Sequence record: KF055347
Origin: Escherichia phage JH2
DNA: 64,000 nucleotides
Reading direction: 5' to 3' (one strand)
Below, one piece after another: positions 2,831-34,199 of this stretch. Position 1 is the stretch's first letter. Each line of letters starts with the position of its first letter. Both the position numbers and the translations under genes were made by a program. The notes under the pieces were generated by a model. The model was not told the origin of the DNA, searched no databases, and saw only the letters and a program-made list of their open reading frames with translations.

Positions 2831-3169
2831 TTAAATCTTGAAAATTTGCTCGTTCTGCCACATATCGTAAAACTTATCACTTACCTTTATGACTGATGAA
2901 GTGTGCATACAATTCAGGGAGAACCATGATGGTGTATTATCATCCATAAGTGTTTCAAGTTTTTGTGTAACGTCCACATCCATGTCTGCAACAACGTAAT
3001 TGCCTCGCATCTTGCAAACAATTCTTCCAAACAAGATTGCACTTCTGCCTCTTCGGTCATCACAGTACATAACTGTGTCACCGTGCTTAACATCTTGTCC
3101 GATACTATCAACACCTAATTTAGCACCTGAGATAATGTCATCATAAGATAGCTTTTTTGCTTTAGACAC
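2831..3169 (-). CDS. hypothetical protein
   Basis: 112 aa ORF, GTG start after GGAGAAA; same strand and tight spacing with neighbours. Confidence 0.45.
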   Translation of the reverse strand: MSKAKKLSYDDIISGAKLGVDSIGQDVKHGDTVMYCDDRRGRSAILFGRIVCKMRGNYVVADMDVDVTQKLETLMDDNTPSWFSLNCMHTSSVIKVSDKFYDMWQNEQIFKI

Positions 3170-3485
3170 GGTATTTCTCCAAGTTTCTTTTTAGATATAA
3201 CCAACCATAGTCAGTTCTTTCTACACCCATGAATAGTGGAGCCATCACAACTTTACCGAAAGTATTCCTGTGTTGGCAGATTTCAAAGGAATACTCTTTC
3301 TCGATATCAATCCCGTATTTGTACAGAACTGCTTTTAAAACTTGTTCATTATCCAGAAGTGTATCTGGAGTCTCACCATACTTCTCAAGTAACGGGTCAT
3401 ACATAAACACCGTCATAGAGATATTGTAGTTTGAGAAGTGGCTCTTCTGAGCCACAACCTCTTTATTAATGCTCTGTGAATCCAT
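3162..3485 (-). CDS. hypothetical protein
   Basis: ORF trimmed to ATG (MDSQS...) after AAGGGG. Confidence 0.45.
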   Translation of the reverse strand: MDSQSINKEVVAQKSHFSNYNISMTVFMYDPLLEKYGETPDTLLDNEQVLKAVLYKYGIDIEKEYSFEICQHRNTFGKVVMAPLFMGVERTDYGWLYLKRNLEKYRV

Positions 3486-4221
3486 TATAACCAACCCCTT
3501 TTAACCAGCACTTCAGGTTATTAGCATCATAATTCAGTTTCGGGTATGAGGTTACATGGAACTGCTCACCATCATAGTAGACAATATCTGCAATCCATAG
3601 TCCATTCTCTTTACAGAAATCTTTATCTGCTTTAGAGGTAATTGGATTAACTTCTACAAAACCATCTACACCCAAATCCTTTAAGCTACCTACAATACCT
3701 TTGCAGATAACGCATGTCTCAGATACTACCACAAAAAGTTCTTGGCTTTCAAGCTCTACAATGTATTCACCAAGCTGTACTTTAGGGAGATTTGACTGCT
3801 TCATAATCTTCCCATCGGCTGCACGAACAATTGCATACCATTCTTTACCATCAACTACTGACATTCTGATAACACACTCTTGACCAGTACGCTTCTCAAT
3901 ATCTGCAAGACGTTTCAAAGCTTCTTCATAGTCGTCTGTGTACTTCAGGTCATTATTATGGCAAACAGCTTTCATAGCACCGTTATGGTCATGTTGTGAC
4001 AGATAAATCAGACCATCAAGAACATATTGCAAATCTGCCTGAGCATCCAGTGTCTCAATGGGGTCTTTCTCTTCAATTGCTTTTACAAGCTCTTTTGCTT
4101 CTTCAAGCATACACAGGGACTGGGATTTTAAAGATTCCCAATACTCATCACTGTAAGGTTGCTTTTGAGTGTTTCCACAACGAAGATTCCAGTTTTTTAC
4201 TGCTTCTCTTGAGTTAAACAT
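3466..4221 (-). CDS. hypothetical protein (N-terminal region possibly MazG-like NTP pyrophosphohydrolase)
   Basis: 251 aa ORF with AAGGAG RBS; acidic helical N-terminal region EEAKELVKAIEEKDPIETLDAQADLQ resembles MazG-type motifs (weak). Confidence 0.45.
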   Translation of the reverse strand: MFNSREAVKNWNLRCGNTQKQPYSDEYWESLKSQSLCMLEEAKELVKAIEEKDPIETLDAQADLQYVLDGLIYLSQHDHNGAMKAVCHNNDLKYTDDYEEALKRLADIEKRTGQECVIRMSVVDGKEWYAIVRAADGKIMKQSNLPKVQLGEYIVELESQELFVVVSETCVICKGIVGSLKDLGVDGFVEVNPITSKADKDFCKENGLWIADIVYYDGEQFHVTSYPKLNYDANNLKCWLKGVGYNGFTEH

Positions 4222-7413: not shown

Positions 7414-9373
7414 CTGCATCCTCACTTAATACGGGTGGAATCGTTGAGCTTTGACGCTGTTCTTCAGTATAGACTTCACCAGTCTCACGGTCAAACACTT
7501 CATCCTCATAATGAGGTAAAGAGTCATCATAATGGTCTTCAGCTTCACCAATGCCAAACTGTTGGCGAATATTTTCTGCTGCGCCATCAATGTCAACACC
7601 ACATCCCGAAGCTTTGATGAGGCGTCCTGTGTCTGGATTGTACCAAGTATGACCAGCGATACCTGTTGACTTACCATGACGACGACACTTAGTTAACTTG
7701 ATTTTTGTCAAGTTTTTCTTAACAGGGTCTGGGTCAACCTTGTTACGCATTAACAGAATGTTATTCATAGAAATCTGGAAATACGCACCAGAACCCTTAA
7801 TATCCTCTTCAGAAATATCCCCACCTTCAGAGTTAGCTTTCTGACCACCTGCACTCTTACGAACGTGACAGACGTTCACCTGTGCATACTGGTAGCGTTT
7901 GCAACGACGCAATAGCTCAGACAAAACTTCCTCTTCATCCGTATCTGAGCGTGACAGAGCCAACGTGATAGGGTCAAGAATGATAATCTTACAGTCTAAA
8001 CTGTTAACAAGATAGTCAACAAACTCCAGCAAATTATCTTGGTCAATTGCCCCTTGATGGTCAACGATATGTATACGACGGCCTTTAGACAGTTCTGCGT
8101 GTGCTTCCTTCAATTCATCCCAATCTCGTTCATCATAAGGAATCTCAGAAATCTGCTTGCTCAGGTGAATTGCACAGAGCATCTCCATCAACTCTTCATA
8201 GGTATCTTCAACTGGAATTACACCAATATTGTAATCGGTTTCCTTCCAAGCAGTGTAAATCATTTCACGGGTATATGCTGATTTACCTACTGAAGATGGT
8301 GCTGCCAGAGTTGTAATCTCACCTAAACCATAACCACCATAAGTCAACCTGTTCAAATCCCCGAAAGATTCTGGGAAAGGAATCAATGGAATCTGACCAC
8401 GATTCTTCATTGCCTCAAAACCATCTGCGAAGTTCTTGATACCAGCAGGGCAGTAACGAGGTGCGTTGTAGATACGCTGTTTAAATCCTTCCAGAACTGT
8501 GTCTTTCTCTTTATAGAACTTTGTCCACCATTCGTTAAGGTCTTTTACGCCTTCTGGATACTGGAATAAACGAACCTTCTCAATAGGTAGTATGCCAGCC
8601 GCCTCTTTGGTAGCTTTAGCACCTGCTTCATCGTTATCAAAGCACAAGTAAATCTCATCAAATGATGTGATGTACTGATAGTTGTCTTTGATGGACTTAA
8701 TGTTTGCACCTGATGGAACAGATACGTGACAGTAATTCTTACGACGAGACTTATCTTTAATCGCCAAAGAAGTCATGTAGATAGCTGTCGCACATTCCAT
8801 CTCACCTTCCCAGATGAACAGTCGGTTCCCACCTTCTGGAGCAATCCATGAACCGAACATTGCCAGTTCACCTTTAATATCTCCAACACCACCTGAAAAG
8901 TCTTTTAACTTACCACGTAGGTGTTCTTTTGGATGGTCTTCTGGGTAACGGTGACGAACACGATAACCAACATGTTCTAGCTTGCCATCTTCATTACGCT
9001 TGTAAGTCGGATAGAAATGTGCATCAATTTCACCGTCACTATCAATATCAACCTTGATACCTAAACGTTCAAGGACTTTTGCAGGAATCTTCCTATCTTT
9101 CAAGTCCATTGCTTCTAGGTTTTCTTTTACATCGTCTAAATCCATTCCACGGAAAGTACGGTTTTTATTATCTGAACCAGTAGAATAAGTGCTCACGATT
9201 TGTCCTTTATCAAAATCCCACTCTGGGAAACCTTTGTTACAACTAAAGCAAGTCATCGAATAAGAATCATCGTCATGATGGTAGATTGAACCAGCATCTG
9301 ATGAACCACAACGTGGACATGCACAATGACCAATAAACTGACCAGCCTCTTTCAATTTACGACCTTTAGACAT
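7388..9373 (-). CDS. DNA primase-helicase (T7 gp4-like)
   Basis: N-terminal Cys4 zinc ribbon (CACPRCGSSD...CFSCNKG), TOPRIM-like middle, C-terminal DnaB-type helicase with Walker A GLGEITTLAAPSSVGKS. Confidence 0.85.
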   Translation of the reverse strand: MSKGRKLKEAGQFIGHCACPRCGSSDAGSIYHHDDDSYSMTCFSCNKGFPEWDFDKGQIVSTYSTGSDNKNRTFRGMDLDDVKENLEAMDLKDRKIPAKVLERLGIKVDIDSDGEIDAHFYPTYKRNEDGKLEHVGYRVRHRYPEDHPKEHLRGKLKDFSGGVGDIKGELAMFGSWIAPEGGNRLFIWEGEMECATAIYMTSLAIKDKSRRKNYCHVSVPSGANIKSIKDNYQYITSFDEIYLCFDNDEAGAKATKEAAGILPIEKVRLFQYPEGVKDLNEWWTKFYKEKDTVLEGFKQRIYNAPRYCPAGIKNFADGFEAMKNRGQIPLIPFPESFGDLNRLTYGGYGLGEITTLAAPSSVGKSAYTREMIYTAWKETDYNIGVIPVEDTYEELMEMLCAIHLSKQISEIPYDERDWDELKEAHAELSKGRRIHIVDHQGAIDQDNLLEFVDYLVNSLDCKIIILDPITLALSRSDTDEEEVLSELLRRCKRYQYAQVNVCHVRKSAGGQKANSEGGDISEEDIKGSGAYFQISMNNILLMRNKVDPDPVKKNLTKIKLTKCRRHGKSTGIAGHTWYNPDTGRLIKASGCGVDIDGAAENIRQQFGIGEAEDHYDDSLPHYEDEVFDRETGEVYTEEQRQSSTIPPVLSEDADDCPFETE

Positions 9374-21023: not shown

Positions 21024-21923
21024 ATGTCACAAGCAGATACAAGTTACAAAAATATCCTGAACCATGTTTTATCCGTTGGTGAACTGCGTACTACACGAAC
21101 TGGAGATGTTATCTCTGCATTTGCTCCACCTCAGTTTCGTTTTGATATGCGAACTGGTTTCCCGCTCTTAACATCTAAACAGGTGTTTACACGGCAAGTT
21201 ATTGGGGAAGCTTTATGGTTCCTGAATGGTGAGAATAAGCTTGGTGAACTCCGTTATCGTACTTGGGGTGAAAATGATGGGGAACGCTGGACTATCTGGT
21301 CAGATGATTTTAAACGCTGGTTAAGCTCTAATTATTCTTCTGAACAAGATTGGTTAGAAGATGCAGGTGGAAGAATCTATGGGGTTCAGTGGAGAAACTT
21401 TGAAGGCCATAACGGTTGTGTTGTAGACCAGTTAGATGCCTTAGTAACAAAGATGAAGGGTGATATCACAGACCGTTACATGCTTGTTAATGCTTGGAAT
21501 GCAGCAGACATTGCAGCAAACTCAATGGCTTTAGCACCTTGTCATGTTCTGTTTCAGATTTATATCACTAATGAGGGTGAAGTTGACTTACAATGGTATC
21601 AGCGTTCAGTAGACACCTTTTTAGGACTTCCATTTAATATTGCATCTTATGGTTTTATTCTGGAAGTTCTTTGTAAGATGACTGGATACACTCCACGGTA
21701 CTTGATAGGTGTCTTTGGGGATACTCAGATTTATCAGAACCATATGAAACAGGTTTATGAACTGATGAACAATGAAGAGTTCCATGCACCAACTTTTGAG
21801 ATTGGTCTACAACTTAATACTTTAAGTGACCTAAAACATCTCACTGCAAGTGACTTTATCGGTGGCATTAACAACTACCAACATGCAGGAAAGATTGAAG
21901 CACCTTTATCAGTAGGTAAGTAA
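21024..21923 (+). CDS. thyA: thymidylate synthase
   Basis: Catalytic LAPCHVLFQ and RSVDTFLGLPFNIASY motifs, near-identical to the ThyA consensus. Confidence 0.9.
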   Translation: MSQADTSYKNILNHVLSVGELRTTRTGDVISAFAPPQFRFDMRTGFPLLTSKQVFTRQVIGEALWFLNGENKLGELRYRTWGENDGERWTIWSDDFKRWLSSNYSSEQDWLEDAGGRIYGVQWRNFEGHNGCVVDQLDALVTKMKGDITDRYMLVNAWNAADIAANSMALAPCHVLFQIYITNEGEVDLQWYQRSVDTFLGLPFNIASYGFILEVLCKMTGYTPRYLIGVFGDTQIYQNHMKQVYELMNNEEFHAPTFEIGLQLNTLSDLKHLTASDFIGGINNYQHAGKIEAPLSVGK

Positions 21924-21924
21924 A

Positions 21925-21960
21925 ACAAAAAAGGCTCCTTTTTATGGGAGCCTTAAATTT
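21925..21960. terminator. bidirectional rho-independent terminator between convergent operons
   Basis: Hairpin AAGGCTCC-TTTTTAT-GGGAGCCTT flanked by A-run on one side and T-rich tract on the other. Confidence 0.65.
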
Positions 21961-22331
21961 TACTTTTCAGTATTCTTTGTGTTCTTTTCAGTAATAGCTT
22001 GGAGGGCTGATACTGATTGAGCCAGATTGTTCACACTATCAGAGAATTTATCAAGGGTCTTAGTAAGTTTTGCGTTCTCACCCTTAACATTCTCTAACTG
22101 GACTTTCTGGTTCTCCATCCCTAGCTGAAGCAGCCTCATATCAGACTGTAAATCACGAATAGCTGAATAATTACTTTTGGAATAATTATCTAACTGCTGT
22201 AACTTTGTTGTGATAGACACTTCTTGTTTACCACTTGCAACCTGCATTGTGGTATACATCCCAATAACACTAAAAATACCAACTACAATTGCACCAATAT
22301 TGTTTTTAAAAGCTTCCTCTAGCCACTTCAT
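21960..22331 (-). CDS. membrane-anchored coiled-coil protein
   Basis: N-terminal TM segment IGAIVVGIFSVIGMYTTM followed by coiled-coil; last gene of the leftward structural operon. Confidence 0.5.
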   Translation of the reverse strand: MKWLEEAFKNNIGAIVVGIFSVIGMYTTMQVASGKQEVSITTKLQQLDNYSKSNYSAIRDLQSDMRLLQLGMENQKVQLENVKGENAKLTKTLDKFSDSVNNLAQSVSALQAITEKNTKNTEK

Positions 22332-22525
22332 TTATTCTCCCCCTTAAAAGCTTTTTCTAAGTTATCTACGAACTCATCATCAATAGGTGTGTCTGTTTTA
22401 CTCGCAAGGTATCTTGCAAGTCTAAAGAACACTTTCTCAATCATGTATTCACTTAGAAGGGATAAAATGAGTTTCCAGAAGAAGCTACCTAGATTTTTTA
22501 GAAGAATTGCTAGGATTGTAGGCAT
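22328..22525 (-). CDS. small hydrophobic protein
   Basis: 65 aa, hydrophobic N-terminal half; GAGGTG RBS. Confidence 0.45.
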   Translation of the reverse strand: MPTILAILLKNLGSFFWKLILSLLSEYMIEKVFFRLARYLASKTDTPIDDEFVDNLEKAFKGENK

Positions 22526-22604
22526 TTAATCACCTCATCAGCCAAGATGGTGAGAATACCCATAAAGAATATTAACACCATCTTAACAATCAGTCAACAA
22601 GGGA

Positions 22605-24950
22605 TTAAGCAGTTCTCACCCAAGCCATTAACTTATAGAACTGGTTAATTACACTAAATGCTGAACCAGAACCTGTACCACCAGTGTTACCACTTACTGT
22701 GTGGCTGTGAGCACCAATACCAACTGAGTGAGCGTGGTTACCATTTGATGCAGCAGTACCACTTACTGAGTGTGAGTGATTCCCAGCACTACCCGTTTGT
22801 ACGGTATTTCTGTTACCATCAGAATCCCAATCACCCCTTGTACCACTTGGTTGCGCACCAGTAATATAACCATGTGTATGAGCACCTGTTGTATTCGTTG
22901 AACCACTCACTGAGTGGGTGTGAGCACCAGTAGTGTTAGTGGTTTTAGTACCGTAGTCAAAGCTAGAGGTTGTCGCAGAGAAACTATGCGTGTGTGAAGG
23001 TAAGTTACCAACAGCTAACGTCACAGAATCTGAACCACCTGTTGTAGCAACATCTGAACCGTTTGCTGCTGCAATTCTGATAGTTCTACCAACACCATTG
23101 TTGAGGTACGTCCAAGTTAGACCAGGAAGTGCTGTATTAGGGTTAACATTGCTGTTAAACCAAGTTACAATACCTACTGGATAGATTTTATTAAGGTCTG
23201 TAGAGTCACTAATTGCCTGTGCAATCTTCTGGTCAGTTTCAGCTTTAGTGTATGCACCAATATCTGAAGGGGTTGGTTTAAAATCAGTTGTGTAAAGCTG
23301 TGCTTCCCCAGCATATCTGCCGTCTTTGTCATAGGCATAGGTGAATGTTGCCAGTCCATTTGAGCCATACACAAAAGAGATTCCTCTTGCATGTGCAGCA
23401 GTCTTATTAGAGTGAGCAACATGAATTGCCAACTCTTTCAGTCCACTAGTAACAGCATTGTTTCTGACAAAACCTGAGTACCCAAGATTAAACCCTGAAG
23501 GGTTTTCAAGGTTATCTACAGATAATGTCATTAAGGATTGGTTTAATAACTGAGTTTTAACAAAATATCTAGCATCTAAGTTAGAAAAGTTCGAAGGTTG
23601 AACTTGACCAGTGATTGCTAAATTCTTATTCGCAACAATTGCTGATGGTTCAAGGGCAATTTGAGTACCAGAGTAACTATTGTTTAAGGTTACCACATTA
23701 GAGTTTGGGCCACCTACACCTAACCACCACCTCGATACGTTCGCGGTATCCACACCACGGATATATAGCGGTTGCCCCTGTGTCAAGTTTCTTAATACTA
23801 AACCTTCGTTATTTGATACGATAGTCTGCACATTCACGAAAGTGTTTGCCACATTAAGTTTAGGGAGATTACTCAAAGTAGCTGCTGGAATATATCTAGA
23901 GTCAATATTAGCCCAATCAGAAGGTTGAACTTGACCAGTGATTCTGAAGTCCTTGTTTACTGCGACATGCCCATTGTCAAGTCTAAGATAAGAACCATAC
24001 ACATAGTTGCTGATGAATACAGCAGGTGTATTATCACCATTTCCTACATACCACTTACCAGAACCATCATTAGCTTCGGCTTTAACGTATAGTGCAGCAT
24101 TTGCTACAGTATTTTTCAACCTTAAAGCAGCACTGTCACTAATAATAAGTAGGTTTCTGCTAAACGTGTTAGTGCCAGTGAAATTGTTATTAGCAGCTAA
24201 CTGTGCAAATCTCTGATTAGCAACTGTCTGTGTGAAGTATCTAGCATCTAAGTTAGAGAAGTCAGAAGGTTGAACTTGACCAGTGATTGCTAAAGACTTA
24301 TTAACAGAGACATTGCTTGCAATAGTCAAAGCTGAGTCATATTTATTATTGTACAGTTGCACTGCATCAGAGCCATTTTTACTAATACCAACCAACCATC
24401 TAGCTGAACCATCTAGGTTTACACCTTCAATATATTGTGCATTGTTTGCATTTTGGTTTCTAAGGCGAAGTAAGTTAACATCACCTTGAATGTTCTGAGT
24501 TCCAGAGAATGTGTTTGTGACAGCAAGCCTTGCATATCTTGCATCATTCTCTTCATTAGTTCTCATACCAAGCTCATTAGGGCTTGGCTTATTCAGAGTA
24601 TGATAAACAGTTGCCGACCTTGAAGCATCTGCAATAGTTAGTTTAAGACCATTTGCGTTGATTTTAAAAGTCTTTAAAACATCCCCAATATTAATCTCAG
24701 AAGAACCTGTAGGGTCAAAGACTGCCTTACCACCATAAAGTAACTTAACAATACCTAAGTCACCCGTCATAGTACTACCAGCAATCTGAACAAATCTCTC
24801 AAGTTTAAAAGACGCTAAGAAGTCTTGATAGGTCATTCGACGGTCTTCATCACCTAGCATTTCAGGTCTCTTTTTAACCCTGACATGAAGAAGGTCATCT
24901 GAACGGATTGTGTCGATTGAGTTTAATTCACTCAACTTGTAATCTGCCAT
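22605..24950 (-). CDS. tail fibre protein (long) with HxH-rich C-terminal tip domain
   Basis: 781 aa; repeated internal segments; C-terminus rich in GAHTHS / GNHSHS / GAHSHT HxH motifs like the metal-binding tip of T4 gp37-type fibres; AAGAGGAAAA RBS. Confidence 0.75.
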
Positions 24951-24996
24951 TATAAATTTTCCTCTTAAAAGGGGCTATAAAGCCCCTGTAAAGAAA

Positions 24997-26166
24997 TTAA
25001 GCTGTTCTTTGCCATACATAAACTACAAAAGATGGTTGCTCAACACTAAATGCTTGACCAGCACCAACAGACCCTGTAGTTCCTGAATGGGTGTGTTCTC
25101 CAACTCCAGTAATGCTAACCGTTACATTGTGTGAATGTGCCCCGATAGCAACAGTGTGTGAGTGCGAGCCAATAGCCACCGTGTGATTATGATTACCATT
25201 AGACGCAGCAGTACCACTGATGGAGTGAGAGTGGTTACCAGCACTATCTGTCTGAACAGTATTCCTGTGCCCATCCCTATCCCAGTCCCCTGACGCACCA
25301 GTATCTTGGTAACCAGTGACATATCCATGCGTGTGAGCACCTGTTGTATTTGTTGAACCACTCACAGAGTGTGTATGAGCACCAGTAGTGTTTGTGGTCT
25401 TAGTACCGTAATCAAATGACGAGGTTGATTTAGTACCATAATCAAACGCACTAACTGAGACATTTGCACCATGACTATGATTTCCACCTGTTAGGTAGAT
25501 AGAATGACTGTGTGATGGTAAATTGTTGCTAGACAAACTAACACTACTAGAGCCAAAGTTACTACCGACTGGCCTTGAGTTATCACTGTAGCCTACTAAT
25601 GCCCGACCTTTTGATACCAACTCCCAAGTACCTCCACAAATTAGGTAGGTAGCTGGGTTAGCAGAGTTCATCGAAAGGTGCAATGTACCAACAGGATAAG
25701 AAGCCTGAACAGCCTTATACAAGTTATTTACTGCTCTTGCTGTAGCGTACTTATCTGCATCCTCATTATAAAGGTTAGATGTTGTCCAGTTCTGGACATT
25801 ACTTAAACCAACCTGCGCCTTAGTTGTATTGTGTGGGTTGCTCTTGTCATTAATATGCTGTTGAATAAGGCTATTAACCTCTTCTGAAGACATAATCTGT
25901 AGATTTGCTCTTGCCTCAGCTACATTAACAATATCTGATAAGTTATTTGCAGCAACTAACTGAAGAGCATTAATAACATTGTCTAGACCAATTTGTGTCT
26001 TAGTAACACCATGAGGGTTATTTCTTAGGCTTGAGTGTGGAGCAAGTAGTTGCTCAAGAGTACATCTCTTATCCTCAATACCCTGCTTAAGATGGAAGAT
26101 ATCACTAAGGTCAATTGGTAAGGCTGCTTGAGGCAAGGCACTAATTTGAATTTCACCTACTGCCAT
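24997..26166 (-). CDS. tail fibre protein (short) sharing the C-terminal tip module
   Basis: 389 aa; C-terminal ~130 aa nearly colinear with the 22605..24950 C-terminus at protein and DNA level. Confidence 0.7.
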   Translation of the reverse strand: MAVGEIQISALPQAALPIDLSDIFHLKQGIEDKRCTLEQLLAPHSSLRNNPHGVTKTQIGLDNVINALQLVAANNLSDIVNVAEARANLQIMSSEEVNSLIQQHINDKSNPHNTTKAQVGLSNVQNWTTSNLYNEDADKYATARAVNNLYKAVQASYPVGTLHLSMNSANPATYLICGGTWELVSKGRALVGYSDNSRPVGSNFGSSSVSLSSNNLPSHSHSIYLTGGNHSHGANVSVSAFDYGTKSTSSFDYGTKTTNTTGAHTHSVSGSTNTTGAHTHGYVTGYQDTGASGDWDRDGHRNTVQTDSAGNHSHSISGTAASNGNHNHTVAIGSHSHTVAIGAHSHNVTVSITGVGEHTHSGTTGSVGAGQAFSVEQPSFVVYVWQRTA

Positions 26167-26168
26167 TA

Positions 26169-34199
<8,031 letters not shown>

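Follow-up and report, generated by a model that had tools for sequence, protein, structure and literature searches.

Organization of the tail fiber locus

The 64,000-nucleotide stretch of Escherichia phage JH2 DNA analyzed here (sequence record KF055347; hereafter, the window) belongs to a myovirus of the genus Felixounavirus that is akin to Felix O1. A megablast search with the window matched 234 phage records, nearly all of which belong to Felixounavirus, and Felix O1 itself aligned at 85.6% identity with 93% coverage. The locus of interest is a run of genes on one strand, encoding wedge 2 (489 amino acids), wedge 1 (285 amino acids), a 100-amino-acid protein, a short tail fiber (STF), a long tail fiber (LTF), and the products of two small open reading frames (ORFs), beyond which td and frd lie on the opposite strand. 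This is the Felixounavirus order, and the arrangement of fiber genes and two small minus-strand ORFs opposed by td/frd is kept in 11 annotated Felixounavirus records. In Bas63, the products numbered gp23 to gp27 are wedge 2, wedge 1, the LTF platform, STF, and LTF, and the wedge proteins are equal in size (489 and 285 residues) to those of the window (PMC12609058). Judging from synteny and this numbering, the 100-amino-acid protein is probably the LTF platform, the counterpart of Bas63 gp25.

The 781- and 389-amino-acid ORFs that the initial annotation had called tail fiber genes are present as described, both on the minus strand (Table 1), and their identity as fibers is borne out by PHROG matches, Pfam domains, and synteny. 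The LTF matches PHROG 4277 ("tail fiber protein") over its full length (1 to 781 of 780, E=0), contains Pfam gp37_trimer (three times), Gp10_C, and Phage_fiber domains, and is orthologous to Felix O1 ORF77, VpaE1 gp75, and Bas63 gp27. The STF has as its orthologs Felix O1 ORF76, VpaE1 gp74, and Bas63 gp26. Block-wise identity profiles revealed that the N-terminal bins of the fibers are 90 to 100% identical to all relatives and that the LTF shaft is a mosaic, with blocks matching different relatives; a DNA repeat family, D2, recurs in the shaft at 23563, 23890, and 24235. For attachment to the baseplate, the LTF and STF use different N-terminal regions.

T4 and Stf-like fibers come with assembly helpers, namely, the chaperones gp38 and gp57A in T4 and Caudo_TAP in Stf-like fibers (seen downstream of the fiber gene in genome L041), whereas the window fiber genes have no adjoining gp38-like or Caudo_TAP-like gene. 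Pfam and PHROGs searches with the 65- and 123-amino-acid ORFs downstream and the 100-amino-acid ORF upstream returned no chaperone-family match and assigned them no function. The absence of a chaperone at the fiber locus bears on assembly, not on fold. A promoter and terminator scan of positions 21900 to 26600 yielded no more sites than shuffled sequence did. Its sole convincing element is a bidirectional hairpin at 21931 to 21954, which is separate from the fiber finding.

Table 1. Features of the fiber locus, in window coordinates
Feature	Position	Strand	Evidence
LTF gene, 781 aa	22605..24950	-	ORF; PHROG 4277; Pfam; synteny with 11 Felixounavirus records
LTF C-terminal 18 residues	22608..22661	-	Aligned with STF tail
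LTF ascending needle arm, aa 725-763, 39 aa	22662..22778	-	3 HxH; length matches 41-aa descending arm
LTF head, type A, aa 694-724	22779..22871	-	Aligns with T4 gp37 segment between central HxH
LTF descending needle arm, aa 653-693, 41 aa	22872..22994	-	3 HxH, one FDYGTK unit; 2XGF homology
LTF collar, aa 587-652, start near YPVG	22995..23192	-	Gp10_C aa 587-704; BLASTP alignment with STF collar
LTF shaft, three ~110-aa repeats (gp37_trimer domains)	23196..24503	-	Pfam gp37_trimer, 3 stretches, E=4.7e-76
STF gene, 389 aa	24997..26166	-	ORF; PHROG 2097 E=5e-142; Gp10_C E=1.5e-18; synteny
STF C-terminal 18 residues: AFSVEQPSFVVYVWQRTA	25000..25053	-	Alignment with LTF tail
STF ascending needle arm, aa 312-371, 60 aa	25054..25233	-	5 HxH
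STF head, type A subtype, aa 281-311: GYVTGYQDTGASGDWDRDGHRNTVQTDSAGN	25234..25326	-	
STF descending needle arm, aa 219-280, 62 aa	25327..25512	-	4 HxH, two FDYGTK units
STF collar, aa 154-218	25513..25707	-	Pfam Gp10_C
100-aa protein, 5' of fiber genes	26169..26471	-	ORF; PHROG 4141 full-length match

A tip module common to both fibers

BLASTP with compositional adjustment aligned LTF residues 590 to 781 with STF residues 157 to 389 at 51% identity over 235 columns (E=7e-55). Similarity had initially been noticed over about 130 C-terminal residues; its colinearity holds, while its true extent is greater, at about 190 to 235 residues from the collar to the C terminus. This module includes a near-identical core of about 95 residues and a 31-residue stretch that is 100% identical between the two proteins, and it closes with an 18-residue C-terminal tail that is common to every fiber examined. 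The alignment has two gaps of exactly 21 residues, one per arm, and no other indels; relative to the LTF, the STF carries one 21-residue insertion in its descending arm and the matching one in its ascending arm. At the DNA level, a direct repeat runs ungapped for 277 nt at 77% identity (22696 to 22972 versus 25151 to 25427), and a second piece (22651 to 22673 versus 25043 to 25065) is shifted by 63 nt, the length of the 21-residue insertion. These coordinates agree closely with the similar DNA first noted at 22680 to 22990 and 25060 to 25430. No further copies of the module were found in the 64-kb window.

HxH motifs punctuate both arms, with six in the LTF (residues 653, 677, and 691 descending and 725, 739, and 748 ascending) and nine in the STF (219, 230, 264, and 278, followed by 312, 326, 335, 344, and 358). 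Their spacing is the same in the two proteins, bar the matched insertions, and intervals of 14, 34, 14, and 9 residues are identical. Across an aligned set of 58 homologs, conservation of these histidines is either complete or no lower than 90%. Because the spacing is conserved, the similarity extends beyond Gly/Ser/Thr runs, and pairwise alignment of the 3' regions thus identifies real homology. Glycine, serine, threonine, and histidine are abundant in the region, and its Pfam Phage_fiber matches are short and marginal, as might be expected if low-complexity sequences resembled each other by chance. We consider such a coincidence vanishingly improbable in light of the compositionally adjusted E value, the shared spacing, the invariant histidines, the ungapped DNA repeat, and the match of the STF to a T4 structure that is described below. 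A low-complexity artifact was ruled out by BLASTP, His spacing, and histidine conservation in the 58 homologs.

Homology to the T4 gp37 tip and the predicted fold

The proposed likeness of the tips to the metal-binding needle of T4 gp37 proved to be genuine homology, as evidenced by phmmer searches against the PDB, Gp10_C and Phage_fiber domains, and cryo-electron microscopy (cryo-EM) of Bas63. STF residues 146 to 360 align with residues 18 to 230 of the 2XGF chain (E=4.6e-28), and LTF residues 651 to 758 align with residues 105 to 216 (E=2.5e-14); 2XGF is the crystallized receptor-binding tip of T4 gp37, the structure of which was reportedly described by Bartual et al. in 2010. Pfam and phmmer also relate the collars of both fibers to T4 gp10. 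The STF collar matches the C-terminal domain of T4 gp10 in 5hx2 and 2fkk (E of about 1e-6), and the Gp10_C score of the LTF, at 25.8 bits, is under the curated cutoff of 27 bits. Across relatives, the LTF collar is conserved at about 90% or more. VpaE1 gp74 and gp75 were reported to be gp37 homologs in 2015 (PMC4690856), and both Bas63 fibers display a collar, an HxH needle, and a head in which the chain doubles back (PMC12609058).

Direct observation of this hairpin comes from the Bas63 orthologs only, and arm lengths provide indirect support for it elsewhere. Across 78 of 79 fiber proteins from 40 genomes, descending and ascending arms change length in step, and the pairs fall into three classes (27/25, 41/39, and 62/59-60 residues). 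The head was defined as the largest gap between HxH motifs, a rule by which about seven STFs were misparsed (L028, L029, L031, L033-L035, and L039), and these were excluded from the arm-length argument. Together with the paired 21-residue indels, this co-variation suggests a chain that folds back on itself.

Structure prediction was attempted for the STF tip. An AlphaFold2 monomer model (244 amino acids, 58-sequence alignment) reached a pLDDT of 70 and a pTM of 0.33. A Foldseek search of the PDB with this monomer gave no match at E<=0.001 and did not retrieve 2XGF; the collar of the model matched 2fkk with a probability of 0.95 and a nonsignificant E of 0.23. An intertwined trimer modeled as a monomer is uninformative, and so the model is not used as evidence for the needle. 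Given the modest model and the lack of a Foldseek match, the fold assignment rests on sequence homology and the published Bas63 structure.

From these comparisons, the collar would come first in each tip, and the chain would then run down a thin needle, turn in a small distal head, and pass back up. Three chains would form a six-stranded needle with a core lined by HxH motifs. In the T4 tip, the HxH motifs bind iron, and a row of metal ions would be bound along the needles considered here. The LTF head is predicted to be the receptor-contacting turn of the fiber, and the receptor that a head would touch is most likely the lipopolysaccharide (LPS) core for Felixounavirus.

Age of the two copies in the window

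Both window heads are 31 residues long, belong to type A, and have a GDWDxDGxRNTVQT core in common; they are identical at 22 of 31 residues and 68% of nucleotides. Per synonymous site, the LTF and STF differ by 0.42 in the descending arm, 0.74 in the head, and 0.62 in the ascending arm, values close to saturation, and the nonsynonymous difference in the descending arm is 0.03. Moreover, the LTF head has more in common with heads of unrelated phages (28 of 31 residues) than with its STF counterpart in the window. The two copies are, on this evidence, best read as old paralogs whose likeness has been kept by purifying selection and not as the products of recent duplication. The near-identical residues would be those of the structural His-box arms, on which purifying selection acts, and the two long-separated type A subtypes could derive either from old common ancestry or from independent acquisition out of a shared pool.

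The ungapped 277-nt repeat and the identical 31-residue stretch would fit a module that was recently duplicated or converted between the two fiber genes, and such conversions do occur in the relatives BPS17L1, L026, and Felix O1. For the window, however, we regard this history as very unlikely. There is no identical tract amid the synonymous differences; divergence is greatest in the head, which is the reverse of the pattern in converted genomes; the LTF and STF head subtypes stay separate in HK3 and mio; and the closest relatives of the LTF head sit on unrelated scaffolds. Recent intragenomic duplication in the window was rejected on the strength of the synonymous-site analysis. The idea of a cassette for receptor-binding tips stands at the level of the genus but is not supported as an account of recent duplication or recombination between the window's own genes.

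Exchange of heads across the genus and beyond

A survey of 41 genomes, some of them near-duplicates, found that the head between the central His boxes is 31 to 67 residues long and falls into discrete types, at least 10 in LTFs and at least 7 in STFs. The type on one fiber gene is independent of that on the other, and in many relatives the LTF and STF heads are wholly unlike. Records with type A heads are few (mio, HK3, and JLBYU28). The window STF head has a near-identical counterpart on the STF of each of the three, the window LTF head recurs in HK3 and mio, and in JLBYU28, type A is confined to the STF and occurs alongside an unrelated LTF head. Outside the genus, the LTF type A head is also present in a fiber of a Mangalitsa-like E. 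coli myovirus of ~52 kb and in a Mu-like prophage fiber with a T4/Stf-like C terminus. A T4-like head is found in the LTFs of VpaE1 and L011 and in one STF, P0030. The recorded host of mio and JLBYU28 is E. coli K-12 MG1655, and that of HK3 is Escherichia sp.; going by these recorded hosts only, type A heads may recognize the LPS core of E. coli K-12.

Swapping of tips among relatives, as first proposed, is therefore supported by independent head assortment, by the same heads on unrelated scaffolds, and by identical tracts between genes that are limited to the head. The unit of exchange differs from the proposal in that it is not the whole module of ~130 residues but the head with its flanking His boxes, ~200 nt. 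The head would act as the variable specificity element between His-box arms, and heads with their flanking His boxes would recombine between phages as well as between both fiber genes of one genome. We hold with great confidence that Felixounavirus LTFs and STFs end in gp37-type tips, that their heads have been exchanged genus-wide, and that the window copies are old.

Evidence for transfer between the two genes comes from Felix O1-type Salmonella phages, in which the LTF and STF heads differ at 0 to 12 positions per 102 nt, compared with 29 to 59 per 162 nt in the arms. In BPS17L1 and L026, the head DNA is 100% identical in both genes, whereas the arms are 18 to 28% different, and the identical tract stops sharply just past the first ascending HxH. 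The 5' joints of head tracts fall inside descending His boxes. Fisher tests of head versus arms in five genomes gave p values of 7e-3 to 1e-11. From these tracts, the head alone appears to have been copied recently between the LTF and STF genes of Felix O1-type Salmonella phages. Identity of heads within one genome could instead come from recombination with a co-infecting relative and not from strict intragenomic conversion.

A broader proposal, which we put forward only tentatively and consider rather doubtful, is that the head and its His boxes (~200 nt) constitute a mobile specificity cassette that moves across lineages and between fiber genes, with the window representing a stable two-specificity state. 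Such a cassette would have crossed among Felixounavirus, T4-like, Mangalitsa-like, and Mu-like prophage lineages and would be converted between LTF and STF genes at a fixed joint that directly follows the first ascending HxH. A phage could thereby switch between the same head on both fibers and two different heads. A limited literature search found no mention of LTF-STF head transfer with a fixed joint.

One specificity or two

What two type A heads would mean for a single phage can be read in two ways. First, both heads may see the same receptor, and two sets of fibers would then add avidity or allow reach from the baseplate at two distances. We would place this reading slightly short of an even chance. 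It is consistent with the common type, length, and core of the window heads, and the LTF and STF heads of Felix O1-type phages are often identical, which indicates that identical specificity on both fibers is viable. Yet 9 of the 31 head residues differ, and these differences are stable in the window, HK3, and mio. The mismatched pair in JLBYU28 further indicates that the two heads need not match.

Second, the type A subtypes may have diverged toward different epitopes or receptor variants and so would provide two specificities, a serious possibility that we nevertheless stop just short of calling probable. Nonsynonymous divergence (dN) is about 0.23 in the head versus 0.03 in the descending arm, both subtypes have been retained in three phages, and the many relatives with unlike heads on their two fibers fit this reading. 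On the other hand, head dN/dS is well under 1, and because dS is also saturated, positive selection cannot be shown.

Comparison with known systems and significance

The fibers of Bas63, Felix O1, and VpaE1 have the same genes, order, and domain plan as the window, with 85 to 93% DNA identity outside the tips, and both fibers likewise terminate in a gp37-like tip, with collar, needle, head, and HxH motifs; the window differs from other Felixounavirus fibers in its head allele, type A, which is rare among phage records. All STFs examined have nine HxH motifs (four down and five up), while the Bas63 STF needle has seven by the count of its authors (PMC12609058). T4 gp37 is colinear with the window tips from the collar through both arms to the C terminus, FDYGTK and HxH motifs included. 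It differs in its number of HxH motifs (seven, versus six in the window LTF and nine in the STF) and in its head, the sequence of which is unrelated to the window heads. Also, the window tips are carried on single-polypeptide fibers of 389 or 781 residues, whereas the T4 tip is on the last of four long-fiber proteins.

For distal fiber loci of T-even phages, Tetart et al. (1998) reportedly described the exchange of adhesin segments between conserved motifs, which are termed "His boxes" in gp37 and are rich in glycine in gp38. These loci resemble those of Felixounavirus in having a hypervariable specificity segment flanked by conserved His motifs with joints inside the motifs. Unlike them, Felixounavirus also exchanges heads between paralogous fiber genes of one genome and with Mangalitsa-like myovirus and Mu-like prophage fibers. 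Searches with tblastn and HMMER also located the His-box needle module in lambda, HK629, and many prophage fibers of E. coli. In lambda Stf and prophage side tail fibers, Phage_fiber repeats (PF03335) accompany a Collar domain of the PF07484 type, whereas the window collars score with Gp10_C instead.

That a gp37-like tip is common to both Felixounavirus fibers is already known from the 2015 report on VpaE1 (PMC4690856) and the 2025 cryo-EM study of Bas63 (PMC12609058). The tip exchange findings are nothing new in kind, and the window contributes just one more allele, type A, linked to phages whose isolation host was E. coli K-12.

In general, the tips of tail fibers decide which bacteria a phage infects, and Felix O1-type phages serve in Salmonella typing and biocontrol; exact boundaries of the exchange unit are therefore useful for host-range engineering. 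That unit spans about 200 nt and comprises the head together with its His boxes; its joint immediately past the first ascending HxH is a recurrent one. The observation that one head fits at least four different fiber scaffolds should also help in such designs.

A gp37-like tip on both tail fibers

The long and short tail fibers (LTF and STF) of JH2 are encoded by consecutive genes and share a C-terminal module, as evidenced by a BLASTP alignment of LTF residues 590 to 781 with STF residues 157 to 389 (51% identity over 235 aligned columns, E=7e-55). Apart from two gaps, each exactly 21 residues long, this alignment has no indels. In the DNA, the module forms an ungapped direct repeat of 277 nt with 77% identity (22696-22972 versus 25151-25427), and a second short repeat piece is offset by 63 nt, the length of one 21-aa insertion. 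A third copy was not found within the 64-kb window. HxH spacings of 14, 34, 14, and 9 are common to both fibers, and, among 58 aligned homologues, the HxH histidines show either no variation or conservation of at least 90%. The initial annotation's observation of a similar, HxH-rich module in the 781-aa and 389-aa proteins is thereby confirmed, as the likeness includes conserved histidine spacing. Six HxH motifs in the LTF and nine in the STF were counted in 11/11 genomes (the window and 10 GenBank relatives), and some IMG/VR loci deviate, with four in certain LTFs and seven in certain STFs.

A PDB search aligned STF residues 146 to 360 with chain residues 18 to 230 of 2XGF, the crystal structure of the T4 gp37 receptor-binding tip (E=4.6e-28), and also matched the LTF to 2XGF (E=2.5e-14). 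The 2XGF alignment is colinear across the FDYGTK units, both HxH sets, and the intervening segment. Homology of both tips to the T4 gp37 tip is, therefore, demonstrable at the sequence level, which puts the resemblance to a metal-binding needle proposed in the initial annotation on firmer ground. In the same search, the collar additionally hit the C-terminal domain of T4 gp10. Pfam places three gp37_trimer domains in the LTF shaft and a Gp10_C collar domain with Phage_fiber repeats in both fibers, the LTF Gp10_C match being slightly under the curated cut-off.

In T4 gp37, HxH motifs coordinate iron; for the JH2 fibers, binding of metal, assembly as trimers, and the identity of the receptor are inferred. 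Based on 2XGF homology and cryo-electron microscopy of the orthologous Bas63 fibers (PMC12609058), each tip would comprise a collar followed by a needle with a small head at its distal end. The chain would descend the needle, turn in the head, and return upward, such that three chains would build a six-stranded needle with HxH motifs lining its axis. Support for this putative hairpin topology comes from the 21-aa insertions of the STF, of which there is one per arm, and from arm lengths, which fall into three matched descending/ascending classes (27/25, 41/39, and 62/59-60 residues) among fibers from 40 genomes. An AlphaFold2 monomer model of moderate confidence (pLDDT 70, pTM 0.33) yielded only a gp10-like collar and no significant Foldseek match.

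Features of the JH2 fiber locus
Feature	Position	Strand	Remarks
ORFs of 65 and 123 aa	21960-22525		downstream of LTF
LTF ORF	22605-24950	minus	781 aa
LTF collar	22995-23192	minus
LTF descending arm	22872-22994	minus
LTF head	22779-22871	minus
LTF ascending arm	22662-22778	minus
LTF tail		minus	18 residues, C-terminal
LTF HxH motifs		minus	residues 653/677/691/725/739/748
STF ORF	24997-26166	minus	389 aa
STF collar	25513-25707	minus
STF descending arm	25327-25512	minus
STF head	25234-25326	minus
STF ascending arm	25054-25233	minus
STF tail		minus	18 residues, C-terminal
STF HxH motifs		minus	residues 219/230/264/278/312/326/335/344/358
ORFs of 100, 285, and 489 aa	upstream of fiber genes	minus	489-aa product is a Baseplate_J protein
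Hairpin	21931-21954		G+C-rich, T runs on both strands
Thymidylate synthase and dihydrofolate reductase genes	beyond the hairpin	plus

Heads as exchangeable units

In the T-even model of Tetart and colleagues (1998), adhesin segments are reportedly exchanged between conserved His-containing motifs. The shared gp37-like tip itself is not new, either as a type of finding or for this particular pair of genes. Both fiber proteins of VpaE1 were reported in 2015 to be homologous to T4 gp37, and conserved N-termini with variable C-termini were described for fibers of the genus (PMC4690856). In 2025, cryo-electron microscopy of Bas63 revealed a T4 gp37-like tip with a collar, an HxH needle, and a head on both fibers; its chain doubles back on itself, and variability among felixounaviruses peaks at the tips (PMC12609058). 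Our modest additions are the boundaries of the mobile unit, a joint that recurs past the first ascending HxH, the transfer of heads between LTF and STF in Felix O1-type genomes, and a type A head (the type found in both JH2 fibers) on four different scaffolds.

Fiber genes were compared from 10 GenBank relatives, 29 IMG/VR loci, and phage mio. Heads, the segments between the central HxH motifs, span 31 to 67 aa and form discrete, mutually unalignable types, at least 10 in LTFs and at least 7 in STFs, that assort independently between the two fibers. For instance, the STF type A head is paired with an LTF type A head (the window, HK3, and mio) or an unrelated one (JLBYU28), and the STF "DVYPREND" head with a T4-like LTF head (VpaE1 and L011) or "RISQGDNAN" (L013 and others). 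Type C is paired with either of two LTF heads, and type B, the Felix O1 type, with B or "QFGGYINS" (L037). In DNA identity profiles, the window's STF tip matches only HK3 and JLBYU28, and its LTF tip only HK3; phage mio matches the latter too. The LTF collar and C-terminal tail are about 90% or more identical to all relatives, and the STF collar drops to about 70-79%.

Type A heads also occur beyond Felixounavirus, on other scaffolds. An unrelated, Mangalitsa-like E. coli myovirus of ~52 kb (L040; Logan SRR7685263) encodes a 342-aa fiber (8001-9029) whose head matches that of the window LTF at 28/31 residues, and DNA similarity (79%) is limited to 212 nt comprising the head and a His box, or HxH-bearing flank, on each side. 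This contig also encodes a PF00940 (RNA_pol) protein, and its fiber scaffold differs from the window LTF. A contig with Mu-like baseplate genes (L041; Logan ERR930250) carries a type A head on a 282-aa prophage fiber (3123-3971) with a PF07484 collar and a T4 gp37/Stf-like C-terminus (…NIAYNYIVRLA), followed by a Caudo_TAP assembly gene. T4-like heads are found on the LTFs of VpaE1 (L006 and L016) and L011, where the head is near-identical to the T4 gp37 head (YIEAWNGTG.GG.KMSSYA.SYR.GGSNTNAAG), and a related one is on a single Felixounavirus STF (P0030). That head types recur on unrelated scaffolds marks the exchangeable unit as the head and flanking His boxes, about 200 nt, rather than the shared module as a whole. 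The recorded host of VpaE1 is E. coli B strains, and T4 gp37 recognizes E. coli B LPS (PMC4690856).

Head transfer between LTF and STF genes

In type B genomes, LTF and STF resemble each other much more in the head than in the surrounding arms (Fisher tests, p 7e-3 to 1e-11 in five genomes).

Nucleotide differences between LTF and STF in type B genomes
Genome	Head and first ascending HxH	Arms
BPS17L1	0/102	29/162
L026	0/102	46/162
Felix O1	6/102	44/162
CECAV041	12/102	42/162
SP116	12/102	59/162

In the head, synonymous differences amount to 0-0.19, versus 0.5-0.85 for the arms; the exception is the descending arm of BPS17L1 (0.13), which falls inside its conversion tract. Identical tracts start at varying points within the descending His boxes and stop sharply right past the first ascending HxH in all type B genomes compared. 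Also, heads are not sorted by locus, as the L020 LTF head and the SP116 STF head share 96% identity. Together, the contrast between head and arms, the tract ends, and the absence of locus sorting are the hallmark of heads having moved repeatedly between LTF and STF genes, either intragenomically or via a co-infecting relative.

The window's own copies do not follow this pattern. No identical LTF/STF tract was found in the window, where the two copies differ at synonymous sites by 0.42 (descending arm), 0.74 (head), and 0.62 (ascending arm). A 31-residue stretch is 100% identical in protein between the two fibers; nevertheless, high synonymous and low nonsynonymous change (0.03 in the descending arm) indicate that it was kept by purifying selection on the needle rather than by recent copying. 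Divergence is greatest in the head (22/31 residues and 68% nucleotide identity), LTF and STF type A subtypes are likewise distinct in HK3 and mio, and the window LTF head resembles the Mangalitsa-like and Mu-like heads more closely than it does the STF head encoded alongside it. The synonymous divergence, the diverged heads, and the separate subtypes contradict a recent duplication in this genome. Thus, the "recombination or duplication cassette" of the initial annotation holds at the genus level, given independent head assortment and head transfer, and not as a recent duplication in the window. The two type A subtypes may bind the same epitope or different epitopes, two readings that we weigh about equally.

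Variation outside the heads and genomic setting

The LTF shaft (23271-24530) is a mosaic. Its ~24231-24530 portion shares 90-100% identity with Felix O1 and SP116 but only ~40-55% with EF202P1 and LTH02, and the pattern is reversed at ~23271-24230 (80-100% to EF202P1 and LTH02), so recombination shuffles shaft repeats as well as tips. Three in-register 68-nt repeats (23563-23630, 23890-23957, and 24235-24302; 74-91% identity, spaced by 327 and 345 nt) encode ITGQVQPSD(F/W)xN(L/I)DxRY and mark the three gp37_trimer domains. In the STF, a 120-nt collar patch (25567-25686, aa ~160-200) has about 60-90%, mostly 70-79%, identity to relatives, and ~70-79% even to HK3 and JLBYU28, to which the rest of the gene is at least 90% identical; this patch may be a small imported segment. 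The fiber N-termini (24950-24360 versus 26166-25580) are weakly similar (23% over 197 columns, E=0.015), which agrees with the structurally alike baseplate-binding domains of Bas63 that have little sequence similarity (PMC12609058). In IMG/VR genomes L018 and L021, the LTF gene downstream of the STF is seemingly broken up over two or three frames, which could be sequencing error or a real pseudogene; the LTF of phage Si3 has been flagged as probably truncated (PMC12609058).

By megablast, 22400-26500 matched 234 phage records, nearly all Felixounavirus, including Felix O1 (85.6% identity, 93% of the query). Gene order is identical in 11 annotated relatives, which label both genes as tail fiber, and tail fiber PHROGs 4277 (full length, E=0) and 2097 (E=5e-142) match the LTF and STF, respectively. 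The 65-aa and 123-aa proteins each have an N-terminal hydrophobic segment and are present in all relatives; Pfam and PHROGs gave no function for either. "Holin" is a name that various records give the 123-aa product; in one record the 65-aa product is labeled "L-fuculose phosphate aldolase," which looks spurious. The hairpin, a candidate bidirectional terminator, lies where the minus-strand structural operon ends and separates it from plus-strand td. The structural backbone (27000-51000) is 96-97% identical to Salmonella felixounaviruses SapYZU01 and BPS15Q2, and the fiber tips match phages isolated on E. coli K-12 (mio and JLBYU28) or Escherichia sp. (HK3). The backbone is not host-discriminating, since 237 records fall within its 95-99% identity band.
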